From NCBI RefSeq assembly GCF_003334335.1, contig NZ_QOWQ01000014.1: a stretch of DNA of 64,000 nucleotides; one strand, 5' to 3'. Under the pieces are notes generated by a model. That model did not search any database. It was not told the origin of the DNA and saw only the letters and a program-made list of their open reading frames with translations. Below are positions 34,681-36,607 of this stretch, piece after piece (the stretch's first letter is position 1; every line of letters begins with the position of its first letter). Both the position numbers and the translations under genes were made by a program. The DNA comes from Escherichia coli (lineage in GTDB: Bacteria > Pseudomonadota > Gammaproteobacteria > Enterobacterales > Enterobacteriaceae).

Positions 34681-34706
34681 AAGCTCCCAACTCCGGGAGC
34701 TTTTTT
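34681..34706 (+). terminator. Rho-independent terminator of purL
   Basis: Hairpin AAGCTCCCAACTCCGGGAGCTT followed by TTTTTT. Confidence 0.8.
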
Positions 34707-34707
34707 G

Positions 34708-34821
34708 TGTCTGTAAATCACGACAATGGGTGGTTTGCCGTGTCGCTTTCTGGCGACACTTAACTCATTGATTTTAATATTATCTAATAAGTTTATCTTA
34801 AGTTGTCTCTTTTTAGCGACA
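34708..34821 (+). promoter_or_regulatory. three TGTC-N10-GACA sites (GlrR-type enhancer sites) upstream of glmY
   Basis: TGTCTGTAAATCACGACA (34708..34725), TGTCGCTTTCTGGCGACA (34741..34758), TGTCTCTTTTTAGCGACA (34804..34821). Confidence 0.75.
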
Positions 34822-34910
34822 CAGTGGCTGATTTACATTCAAACAGCGGAGGAGACATAAACCCCTCAAAGCAACGTATAATCAGTACGTTACCAAACTA
34901 TTTTCTTTAT

Positions 34911-34925
34911 TGGCACAGTTACTGC
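34911..34925 (+). promoter_or_regulatory. sigma-54 (-24/-12) promoter of glmY
   Basis: TGGCAC-N5-CTGCA with GG and GC separated by exactly 10 bp; predicted start 12-13 bp downstream coincides with the glmY 5' end. Confidence 0.75.
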
Positions 34926-34937
34926 ATAATAGTAACC

Positions 34938-35123
34938 AGTGGCTCATTCACCGACTTATGTCAGCCCCTTCGGGACGTGCTACATAAAATACGAATGACG
35001 CACAACAAGGTGCCTGCCGTCCAACTTCTGATATCAGCGTAGCTATATCAACCATCGGGCGAAACGTCGAGTTAGGCACCGCCTTATTCCATAACAAAGC
35101 CGGGTAATTCCCGGCTTTGTTGT
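34938..35123 (+). ncRNA. glmY: GlmY small RNA (regulator of glmS via GlmZ/RapZ)
   Basis: AGTGGCTCATTCACCGACTTATGTCAGCCCCTTCGGGACGTGC... recognised as GlmY; ends in terminator AAAGCCGGGTAATTCCCGGCTTT plus T-run. Confidence 0.85.
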
Positions 35124-35179
35124 ATCTGAACTTCCCCTCGGTTAGCATCAGGCTATTCGCGTCTGACGAGAGTAACACC

Positions 35180-36607
35180 TTGAAACGCTGGCCCGTTTTT
35201 CCCCGCTCATTACGACAACTGGTAATGCTGGCATTTTTGCTGATTCTGCTGCCCCTGTTGGTGCTGGCATGGCAAGCCTGGCAAAGCCTGAATGCGCTTA
35301 GCGATCAGGCGGCGCTGGTTAACCGCACTACGCTTATTGATGCCCGGCGCAGTGAAGCGATGACCAACGCGGCGCTGGAGATGGAGCGTAGTTACCGTCA
35401 GTATTGCGTGCTGGACGACCCAACCCTGGCGAAGGTTTATCAAAGCCAGCGCAAGCGTTACAGCGAAATGCTCGATGCCCACGCAGGCGTGCTGCCGGAC
35501 GATAAACTCTACCAGGCATTACGTCAGGATTTGCACAATCTGGCTCAACTTCAGTGTAACAACAGCGGTCCCGATGCTGCCGCCGCCGCACGTCTTGAAG
35601 CCTTTGCCAGTGCCAATACCGAAATGGTACAGGCCACGCGCACAGTGGTGTTCTCTCGTGGGCAGCAGCTTCAGCGTGAAATCGCCGAACGTGGGCAATA
35701 TTTTGGTTGGCAATCGCTGGTGCTATTTCTGGTGAGTCTGGTAATGGTACTGCTTTTCACGCGGATGATTATCGGGCCGGTGAAAAATATCGAGCGCATG
35801 ATCAACCGTCTGGGGGAAGGGCGTTCTCTGGGCAATAGCGTCTCGTTCAGTGGACCGAGCGAGTTACGCTCGGTTGGGCAACGTATTCTTTGGTTAAGTG
35901 AGCGCCTGTCATGGCTGGAATCCCAACGCCATCAATTTTTAAGACATTTATCTCATGAATTAAAAACGCCACTGGCGAGTATGCGCGAGGGCACTGAATT
36001 ACTGGCTGACCAGGTTGTCGGGCCGCTTACGCCAGAGCAAAAAGAGGTGGTGAGCATTCTTGATAGCAGCAGCCGCAATTTGCAAAAACTGATCGAACAA
36101 CTGCTTGATTACAACCGTAAACAGGCGGACAGTGCGGTGGAACTGGAGAATGTTGAGTTAGCACCGCTGGTGGAGACAGTGGTTTCTGCTCATAGCCTGC
36201 CCGCACGGGCTAAAATGATGCATACCGACGTCGATCTCAAAGCAACAGCTTGCCTGGCGGAGCCAATGCTGCTGATGAGCGTACTGGATAATCTTTACTC
36301 CAATGCGGTGCACTACGGGGCTGAATCCGGTAACATTTGCCTTCGCAGCAGTTTACATGGTGCGCGGGTTTATATTGATGTCATCAATACAGGCACGCCC
36401 ATTCCGCAAGAGGAACGCGCCATGATCTTCGAACCCTTTTTTCAGGGAAGCCACCAGCGAAAAGGGGCGGTGAAGGGCAGCGGTCTGGGATTAAGCATTG
36501 CCAGGGATTGTATTCGCCGTATGCAAGGGGAACTGTATCTGGTCGACGAGAGCGGGCAAGACGTTTGTTTCCGCATTGAATTACCGTCGTCGAAAAACAC
36601 GAAATAA
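35180..36607 (+). CDS. glrK: sensor histidine kinase GlrK (YfhK)
   Basis: ORF 35117..36607; protein MKRWPVFPRSLRQLVMLAFLL... of 475 aa requires TTG start at 35180; HAMP and HisKA (SHELKTPL) motifs. Confidence 0.85.
   Translation: MKRWPVFPRSLRQLVMLAFLLILLPLLVLAWQAWQSLNALSDQAALVNRTTLIDARRSEAMTNAALEMERSYRQYCVLDDPTLAKVYQSQRKRYSEMLDAHAGVLPDDKLYQALRQDLHNLAQLQCNNSGPDAAAAARLEAFASANTEMVQATRTVVFSRGQQLQREIAERGQYFGWQSLVLFLVSLVMVLLFTRMIIGPVKNIERMINRLGEGRSLGNSVSFSGPSELRSVGQRILWLSERLSWLESQRHQFLRHLSHELKTPLASMREGTELLADQVVGPLTPEQKEVVSILDSSSRNLQKLIEQLLDYNRKQADSAVELENVELAPLVETVVSAHSLPARAKMMHTDVDLKATACLAEPMLLMSVLDNLYSNAVHYGAESGNICLRSSLHGARVYIDVINTGTPIPQEERAMIFEPFFQGSHQRKGAVKGSGLGLSIARDCIRRMQGELYLVDESGQDVCFRIELPSSKNTK

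Follow-up and report, generated by a model that had tools for sequence, protein, structure and literature searches.

A 64-kb stretch of E. coli DNA (64,000 nt, hereafter called the window) carries, between purL and a two-component system, an intergenic segment that raises two questions: does it hold a complete small RNA (sRNA) gene under sigma-54 control, and how does this gene relate to the regulators encoded next to it? The original prediction was that the segment contains glmY, with a sigma-54 promoter and three TGTC-N10-GACA sites, directly upstream of glrK-qseG-glrR. We found that positions 34600-35300 (701 bp) are 100% identical to E. coli K-12 MG1655, and the glmY locus sequence was found in all 5426 of the 5426 complete E. 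coli genomes. The RefSeq gene order is purL, qseE, qseG, glrR and glnB, with the purL coding sequence ending at 34622, which confirms the purL-glmY-glrK(qseE) synteny, and both QseG and GlrR score above their NCBIfam equivalog cut-offs (Table 1). The locus is glmY (sroF/tke1), characterized in Göpel et al. 2011 (PMC3045617) and Göpel & Görke 2018 (PMC6075780); results of the primary paper, Reichenbach et al. 2009 (Mol Microbiol 74:1054; PMID 19843219), are taken from the later papers citing it. Over the 701 bp there is no difference between that K-12 locus and the window, and the two are the same locus.

The Rfam match, the motifs, the RefSeq order and the literature all agree with the predicted arrangement, and every element described is present, either exactly where it was placed or within 1-2 nt. 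We thus regard the region, with a probability of about 97%, as E. coli K-12 glmY with its complete transcriptional control region, flanked by the purL terminator on one side and the qseEGF (glrK-qseG-glrR) operon on the other. From our own analysis this reading draws on K-12 identity, the motifs, the Rfam match, the order of the genes and the conservation seen over 92 loci; the sigma-54/GlrR/IHF dependence, the transcription start site (TSS), processing, the RapZ decoy role and the absence of read-through come from the literature. Nothing substantive among the results spoke against the glmY identification.

Table 1. Features of the glmY locus and the adjoining operon (positions in the window; promoter distances relative to the TSS at 34938)
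Feature	Position	Strand	Basis and remarks
purL intrinsic terminator	34681..34706	+	Terminator scan; hairpin AAGCTCCC-AACTCC-GGGAGCTT and T-run, which passes straight into ABS1
ABS1, GlrR/QseF site TGTCTGTAAATCACGACA	34708..34725	+	Exact motif; centre -221.5; position kept in relatives
ABS2, GlrR/QseF site TGTCGCTTTCTGGCGACA	34741..34758	+	Exact motif; centre -188.5
IHF site 1 (distal), AATCAATGAGTTA on the minus strand	34761..34773	-	Consensus WATCARNNNNTTR; between ABS2 and ABS3
ABS3, GlrR/QseF site TGTCTCTTTTTAGCGACA	34804..34821	+	Exact motif; centre -125.5
IHF site 2 (proximal), AATCAGTACGTTA	34880..34892	+	IHF consensus; between ABS3 and promoter
Sigma-54 promoter TGGCAC-N5-CTGCA (TGGCACAGTTACTGCA)	34911..34926	+	GG at -26/-25, GC at -14/-13
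Weak sigma-70 promoter, -10 hexamer CATAAT	34925..34930	+	Read from sequence and literature; overlaps the sigma-54 promoter, same start site
glmY, full-length sRNA (184 nt)	34938..35121	+	Rfam, fold, published length, K-12 identity; active processed form of 148 nt, 34938-35085
glmY intrinsic terminator	35091..35123	+	MFE fold; 14-bp stem, core GCCGGG-TAATT-CCCGGC, U-tract UUUGUUGU
glrK/qseEGF sigma-70 promoter (hexamers putative)	35120..35155	+	Candidate -35 TTGTAT 35120-35125 and -10 TAGCAT 35143-35148; TSS ~35155
glrK (qseE/yfhK), sensor histidine kinase, TTG start	35180..36607	+	RefSeq; histidine-kinase family matches
qseG (yfhG), lipoprotein	36772..37485	+	RefSeq; NCBIfam NF007997, 359 bits (cut-off 234)
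glrR (qseF/yfhA), sigma-54-dependent response regulator	37475..38809	+	RefSeq; NCBIfam NF011695, 982 bits (cut-off 763)

When the predicted sRNA was compared with Rfam, family RF00128 (GlmY_tke1) matched 34938-35085 (+) over the full model (1-163 of 163) at 146 bits, far above the gathering score of 33 (E=1.5e-32). The MFE fold is stable, with three hairpins (z = -5.7), and the two 5' stem-loops as well as the terminator hairpin are maintained in relatives; an alifold of 86 distinct GlmY sequences yielded 30 pairs, each at least 94% paired, with compensatory changes in 5 of the 30. The canonical terminator expected at the end of glmY was seen in the fold as a hairpin with a U-tract. In relatives its stem is kept by compensatory change (GCCGGG/CCCGGC, GGCAGGG/CCCTGCC and CGCCGGG/CCCGGCG), and among the E. 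coli alleles (n=7) it is invariant except for one loop base. A simple terminator scan reported the purL terminator only, presumably missing that of glmY because its stem reaches into the U-tract. The RNA had been predicted to be 186 nt long (34938-35123), two more than the published length: a review gives 184 nt for the full-length form, which ends at about 35121 and is trimmed to 148 nt. According to the literature, GlmY is a decoy for RapZ that stabilizes GlmZ, leading to higher glmS expression.

Could the stretch encode protein instead? Open frames do appear here in the mechanical list of open reading frames (ORFs), namely, an extended GlrK from TTG 35117 and the ORFs at 34803-35042 (+) and 34948-35178 (-). 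However, RefSeq starts glrK at 35180, tblastn alignments set in with the first residue encoded from there, and the TTG is conserved at this position in 90 of 95 related loci; many relatives carry in-frame stops just upstream, and 23 short-spacer loci lack an in-frame upstream start before a stop. TTG 35117, simply the earliest start codon in the mechanical ORF, sits in the 3' arm and tail of the terminator, while the remaining ORFs overlap a high-scoring structured RNA. A coding function for this stretch is hardly conceivable, and the reading as an RNA gene stands.

The control region was examined for activator sites. All three predicted TGTC-N10-GACA sites proved exact, and the window contains no other match to the motif. 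By itself this count is weak, as 0.81 matches are expected in 64 kb and three were reached in 5 of 100 shuffles; significance was judged instead by clustering and conservation. The sites lie within 114 bp of each other upstream of the promoter, and the Poisson probability of at least three matches in a given 260-bp stretch is ~6e-9. Spacing is 33 bp between ABS1 and ABS2 (32-33 bp in 62 of the 63 related loci with three sites) and 63 bp between ABS2 and ABS3, as in 62 of those 63 loci, so that the three TGT-N12-ACA sites show the fixed phasing by which the GlrR/QseF regulon is recognized. In published work ABS1 is dispensable for activity, and ABS2 and ABS3 are essential.

Both the IHF requirement and the two IHF sites were absent from the original prediction. 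Two putative sites that flank ABS3 have been described, the distal one being essential for sigma-54 promoter activity, and we assign it, from its position, to 34761-34773. Of the 92 loci compared, 62 have a consensus match corresponding in position to site 1 and 24 have one corresponding to site 2. Since IHF consensus matches are at chance level across the window (5 found versus 4.3 expected), the significance of both sites rests on position, conservation and published mutagenesis. With activator sites more than 100 bp upstream and IHF consensus matches in between, the layout is that of a sigma-54 promoter.

The -24/-12 element itself was predicted correctly, start included, except that its end had been set one base short, at 34925. 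A search of the window for TGGCAC-N5-YTGCW returned this element as the sole match; its GG and GC are 10 nt apart, it is TGGCAC-N5-TTGCW-like, and it lies ~12 nt upstream of the TSS. The sigma-54 ChIP-seq motif assigned to glmY, TTGGCACAGTTACTGCA, is identical to it. The prediction had no sigma-70 promoter overlapping the -12 element, of which the CATAAT hexamer is found at the -10 position in 51 of 92 loci. A sigma-70 scan of 34550-35350 at a threshold of 9 of 12 returned no promoter, neither the published glmY promoter nor that of glrK reaching the threshold; because both are described as weak, this result is not evidence against them. Basal glmY transcription continues without sigma-54. Independence from sigma-54, which had been put forward as grounds for rejecting the prediction, is a misleading standard because the sigma-70 promoter supplies that basal transcription.

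To assess conservation, 92 Enterobacterales glmY loci were compared, with glrK required downstream. From 120 contig pattern matches, about ten were excluded as chance (Microbacterium, Caulobacteraceae, Planctomycetota and others) and a further handful as glmZ-type second copies (Serratia, Brenneria) or truncated loci; glrK lies downstream in 97 related loci, K-12 included. All 92 loci have the -24/-12 element, and 63 have three TGT-N12-ACA sites at spacings of 32-33 and 63 bp. Seven divergent E. coli alleles hardly differ in the ABS half-sites, GlmY and the glmY-glrK spacer and are identical in the -24/-12 element, while the flanking intergenic DNA varies. The Enterobacterales comparison confirms the conserved glmY architecture. 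A separate observation concerns the E. albertii type strain, in which the whole GlrR/IHF upstream region has been lost.

The overlap of the two promoters invites the view that the -24/-12 element is vestigial and that glmY in E. coli works in effect as a sigma-70 gene, like glmZ of the same species. For Escherichia, an "evolutionary transition" of the regulon to sigma-70 has been proposed in the literature, and the upstream activating sequence (UAS) missing from the E. albertii type strain would fit this view, as would the position of the -10 hexamer. Yet the sigma-70 contribution in K-12 is only marginal according to published work, and induced glmY transcription depends on rpoN, glrR and ihf; expression collapses when glrR, qseG, qseE or ihf is deleted or when ABS2 or ABS3 is mutated. 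Moreover, the sigma-54 ChIP-seq signal at the site is listed as 200, one of the highest entries in the section of the table examined, glmY is up-regulated on sigma-54 overexpression, and the UAS and the -24/-12 element are invariant over the E. coli alleles. Published mutant data have already refuted the vestigial element, which we consider very improbable.

We then turn from the functional sigma-54 promoter to the relation of glmY with glrK. The glmY terminator was thought to abut the TTG start of glrK; the RefSeq start is at 35180, 56 nt past the terminator end. A sigma-70 promoter of its own has been mapped for the qseEGF operon, and transcription from it starts 25 bp before the start codon. 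For its hexamers we infer TTGTAT and TAGCAT, a weak consensus match (7 of 12), and the putative -35 would overlap the terminator tail (3' arm and U-tract). The spacer is invariant among the seven E. coli alleles except for base 35177, downstream of the putative promoter; such invariance shows constraint and does not specify the function.

Read-through from glmY into glrK had been considered possible, which would make glmY and glrK-qseG-glrR one transcription unit with sigma-54/GlrR-driven glrK expression and positive autoregulation. The genes are indeed adjacent on the same strand, 56 nt apart, and in Proteus mirabilis the glmY promoter is reported to drive glmY-qseEGF as one transcript. In Yersinia and Serratia loci the GlmY core is not followed by any clear hairpin and T-run, and a simple terminator finder returned "None" for many long-spacer taxa; this is not evidence of absence because the canonical long-loop terminator that Dickeya nonetheless has was missed. 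Against a single unit, the K-12 terminator has a 14-bp GC-rich hairpin and U-tract conserved by compensatory change, and qseEGF has an independent promoter, so the window offers neither the ineffective terminator nor the missing promoter of a single operon. Furthermore, qseE'-lacZ fusions showed indistinguishable activity whether or not they included all of the glmY locus, and deletion of qseF or qseG had no effect (LB only); the qseE/qseF two-component system is not autoregulated. An earlier RT-PCR in K-12 found virtually no read-through from glmY into glrK. Co-transcription is thus largely refuted for K-12 grown in LB and is very improbable, and the notion of the sRNA and the two-component system as a compact module with read-through is not valid for E. 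coli K-12. Given the overlap of the putative glrK -35 with this terminator tail, strong sigma-54-driven glmY transcription could conceivably modulate kinase synthesis by promoter occlusion or condition-specific read-through, a hidden feedback between sRNA and two-component system to which we give only a slight chance.

The pathway described in the literature runs as follows. QseG, a lipoprotein, stimulates the kinase GlrK/QseE, which phosphorylates the enhancer-binding protein GlrR/QseF, and the latter binds the three TGTC-N10-GACA sites at their tabulated centres; the DNA in between is bent by IHF, and sigma-54 RNA polymerase at TGGCAC-N5-CTGCA is activated by GlrR. The weak sigma-70 promoter overlapping the -12 element, with its -10 CATAAT, starts at the same nucleotide, 34938, and provides basal expression. 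The 184-nt transcript stops at the strong intrinsic terminator before being trimmed to 148 nt, and this form sequesters the RNase E adaptor RapZ, sparing the homologous sRNA GlmZ, which in turn activates glmS translation when glucosamine-6-phosphate is scarce. The downstream glrK operon is a transcription unit of its own, served by the weak sigma-70 promoter within the 56-nt spacer.

The glmY locus and its control region are already fully described in the literature, and the window adds nothing new; the experiments proposed with the original prediction have likewise been published. The biology is important and was settled between 2007 and 2020, encompassing GlmY/GlmZ/RapZ control of glmS and of cell-envelope precursor supply, along with QseE/QseF virulence signaling. 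The locus serves as a positive control in which an sRNA gene, a sigma-54 promoter and enhancer sites were correctly recognized from sequence alone.

Several known systems can be set beside this locus. GlmZ, the homologous sRNA (Rfam clan CL00011), resembles GlmY in sequence and fold, and in most Enterobacterales glmZ has the same GlrR, IHF and sigma-54 architecture, whereas Escherichia glmZ, unlike glmY, has a sigma-70 promoter only. GlmZ base-pairs with glmS, while GlmY has no pairing site and acts as the RapZ decoy; the RNA in the window is assigned to GlmY rather than GlmZ, with glrK next downstream. The glmY-qseEGF locus of Proteus mirabilis (PMC8745638) matches in gene order and likewise has two IHF sites, three QseF sites and a sigma-70 promoter overlapping that for sigma-54; its reported co-transcription contrasts with the separate glrK promoter of K-12. 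For Proteus, the 3' end of GlmY has been proposed to be generated when a glmY-qseE co-transcript is processed. Yersinia pseudotuberculosis glmY/glmZ, which belong to the sigma-54-only group, share the three ABS sites, the IHF sites and the -24/-12 element but, unlike E. coli, have no sigma-70 -10 hexamer overlapping the latter. The GlmY core and glrK are much farther apart in the sampled Yersinia loci (396-1173 nt) than in the window (96-97 nt).

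Over 34600-35300, the sequence shows 100% identity to E. coli K-12 MG1655, and each of the 5426 complete E. coli genomes contains this stretch. The flanking genes were taken from the RefSeq annotation of MG1655 (record NZ_CP032667.1, PGAP; window coordinate = locus coordinate + 29599), and the GlrR and QseG proteins encoded in the window scored 982 and 359 bits against NCBIfam equivalog cutoffs of 763 and 234, respectively. An Rfam scan of the whole window matched the full RF00128 model (GlmY_tke1, positions 1-163) at 146 bits versus a gathering score of 33 (E = 1.5e-32), which bore out the identification of the small RNA as GlmY in the original prediction. 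This is the textbook glmY locus of E. coli K-12, real and correctly named, and both the finding and its complete explanation are already known.

The PGAP annotation of NZ_CP032667.1 carries no glmY feature between purL and qseE, despite the 146-bit Rfam score for the RNA at 34938-35121. The remaining Rfam matches above the gathering score, namely, 5S rRNA, ES036, AsrC (antisense to rseC), rncO, OhsC, and naRNA4 (91-206, 11932-11974, 18441-19272, 22055-22269, 25682-25758, and 63757-63828), are all expected in this part of the K-12 chromosome.

In its minimum free energy fold, the RNA from 34938 has two stem-loop domains at the 5′ end and a terminal hairpin of 14 bp followed by the tail UUUGUUGU (−66.7 kcal/mol; z = −5.7); no sequence out of 200 shuffles folded equally well. 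GlmY is a 184-nt RNA that is quickly processed to an active 148-nt form, which sequesters RapZ, such that GlmZ, the activator of glmS, is protected (2014 review, PMC4152352). These lengths place the 3′ ends at 35121 and 35085; the latter is the final base of the Rfam match and falls within GCCUUAU, termed an RNase E motif in a Proteus study (PMC8745638).

Coordinates of the features at the glmY locus
Feature	Coordinates	Strand	Remark
purL	30735-34622		RefSeq MG1655
purL terminator	34681-34706		terminator scan; runs directly into ABS1
ABS1	34708-34725		exact TGTC-N10-GACA
ABS2	34741-34758		exact TGTC-N10-GACA
IHF consensus match	34761-34773	minus	between ABS2 and ABS3
ABS3	34804-34821		exact TGTC-N10-GACA
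IHF consensus match	34880-34892	plus	between ABS3 and promoter
-24/-12 element	34911-34926		TGGCAC-N5-YTGCW; single match in window
CATAAT (-10)	34925-34930		read from sequence; overlaps GC of -12 element
GlmY_tke1 match	34938-35085	plus	Rfam scan
glrK -35 (putative)	35120-35125		TTGTAT
glmY-glrK spacer	35124-35179		56 nt
glrK -10 (putative)	35143-35148		TAGCAT
qseE/glrK	35180-36607		RefSeq MG1655
qseG	36772-37485		RefSeq MG1655
glrR	37475-38809		RefSeq MG1655
glnB	38870-39208		RefSeq MG1655

The control region has been dissected experimentally, and this literature concerns the very sequence found here. GlrR activates a sigma-54 promoter of glmY from three TGTCN10GACA motifs (ABS1 to ABS3), which it binds at a distance of over 100 bp upstream of the gene; the -12 element of this promoter is overlapped by a sigma-70 promoter with the -10 hexamer CATAAT. 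ABS2, ABS3, and the distal of two IHF-like sites (WATCARNNNNTTR) flanking ABS3 are essential, and ABS1 is dispensable (Göpel et al. 2011, PMC3045617). Exact pattern searches recovered the predicted trio of GlrR sites as the only three matches in 64 kb. The count alone is only mildly unusual (0.81 expected; three reached in 5 of 100 shuffles); the sites are, however, packed into 114 bp, and a Poisson estimate for at least three in a given 260-bp stretch is ~6e-9. The -24/-12 element was likewise present, its predicted end being one base short. In a sigma-54 ChIP-seq table, TTGGCACAGTTACTGCA, identical to window 34910-34926, is assigned to glmY, and its value of 200 ranks near the top of the entries consulted (Bonocora et al. 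2015, PMC4591121). Since the five IHF consensus matches in the whole window, two of them in this control region, are at chance level (4.3 expected), the weight of the glmY IHF sites comes from their position, conservation, and published mutagenesis. These sites, the overlapping sigma-70 promoter, and the purL terminator had been overlooked, the first base of the terminator being the very start of the originally predicted feature (34681).

It had also been proposed that the glmY terminator abuts the glrK start. The mechanical open reading frame of glrK begins at TTG 35117, within the 3′ arm of that terminator; the annotated start is TTG 35180 instead, and in 95 related loci tblastn homology to GlrK sets in at residue 1 as counted from TTG 35180. 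The corresponding codon is TTG in 90 of these loci; 4 have GTG and 1 has CTG. In 23 loci with short spacers, a stop codon is met upstream of the glrK start before any in-frame start codon, in several cases just 9 to 15 nt away. Terminator and start codon are therefore not adjacent but separated by the 56-nt spacer.

The qseEGF operon is expressed from a sigma-70 promoter of its own directly downstream of glmY, with a transcription start 25 bp ahead of the start codon (Göpel & Görke 2018, PMC6075780), i.e., at ~35155. Its hexamers are probably TTGTAT, overlapping the tail of the glmY terminator, and TAGCAT, separated by 17 bp; this putative promoter is a weak match to sigma-70 (7/12), which fits the very low level of qseE expression that has been reported. 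As for the suggested read-through from glmY into glrK, qseE′-lacZ fusions carrying the qseE promoter only (−70 to +107) or the whole glmY locus including the control region (−480 to +107) had virtually indistinguishable activities, unchanged by deletion of qseF or qseG in exponential and stationary phases, and that paper adds that, judging from earlier RT-PCR, read-through "does virtually not occur" (PMC6075780). Read-through has thus already been tested for K-12, with a negative outcome, and is experimentally disfavored.

Within E. coli, identity to K-12 over 701 bp is 99% or more in 1335 genomes, 95 to 99% in 1709, and 90 to 95% in 2382. Alignment of seven alleles across this range located the main length difference outside the control region, in an 18-bp indel of a REP-like hairpin directly after the purL stop codon: K-12 has a shortened palindrome (~34645-34668), and most other lineages carry 18 extra bases that complete it (GCCCGGATGCGGCATTTACGCCGCATCCGGCA). 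Together with scattered substitutions, the indel helps to explain why 2382 of 5426 genomes reach only 90 to 95%. Among the seven alleles, substitutions cluster in the DNA that separates the sites. No allele differs in the TGTC or GACA half-sites, the -24/-12 element, or CATAAT; a single loop base changes in the terminator and a single position (35177) in the glmY-glrK spacer. GlmY differs at four positions only, including 34991 (nt 54, unpaired in stem-loop 1), which is A in K-12 and T in the six other alleles and E. albertii. In E. coli GMF065 (L005 1-400), an IS200/IS605-family tnpA directly upstream of ABS1, ahead of the equivalent of 34700, replaces the purL-proximal intergenic sequence, the control region being intact from ABS1 on.

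Species-representative genomes scanned with a plain DNA pattern for the GlmY 3′ core (ACGTNGAGTNAGGCNCCGCC) yielded 120 loci, 96 of them with glrK downstream (97 with K-12); the others were truncated loci, second glmZ-type copies (Serratia, Brenneria), and chance matches in unrelated phyla. Among 92 loci with sufficient upstream sequence, the -24/-12 element lies at the expected distance in all 92 and CATAAT at the overlapping position in 51. Three relaxed TGT-N12-ACA sites occur in 63, three exact TGTC-N10-GACA sites in 22, and two exact sites in 59, and the distal and proximal IHF consensus in 62 and 24, respectively. Site spacing is essentially fixed (ABS1-ABS2, 32 to 33 bp; ABS2-ABS3, 63 bp). 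GlmY pairing is also kept, with 30 alifold pairs at least 94% paired and five showing compensatory changes, and the terminator stems covary (GCCGGG/CCCGGC, GGCAGGG/CCCTGCC, and CGCCGGG/CCCGGCG).

The type strain E. albertii NBRC 107761 departs from this arrangement. Homology to K-12 extends as far as the purL stop codon and sets in again precisely where the -24 box begins (34911); the box reads TGGCAT, with CTGCATAAT kept. About 1 kb of unrelated DNA (L010 8923-9925, equivalent to 34623-34910) replaces the purL terminator, ABS1 to ABS3, and both IHF sites; it encodes a GNAT-like acetyltransferase open reading frame on the minus strand, with all family hits below curated cutoffs. Since neither a TGT-N12-ACA nor an IHF motif occurs in this segment, this one genome appears, from its sequence, to have lost the enhancer region that serves GlrR and IHF at glmY, and its glmY may have lost activation through GlrR and sigma-54. 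The replacement is not addressed in the literature found that names both glmY and E. albertii.

The junction with glrK differs among genera. Escherichia, Citrobacter, Salmonella, and Enterobacter typically have the conserved terminator with the glrK start 58 to 62 nt beyond it, whereas the GlmY core and glrK lie 231 to 265 nt apart in Pectobacterium and Dickeya, 322 to 525 nt in Serratia, and 396 to 1173 nt in Yersinia. No obvious hairpin with a T-run was seen downstream of the core in Yersinia and Serratia loci (L044, L045, L099, L025, and others). Unlike in K-12, co-transcription of glmY with qseEGF has been reported in Proteus mirabilis (PMC8745638), and the arrangement in Yersinia and Serratia may be related to it.
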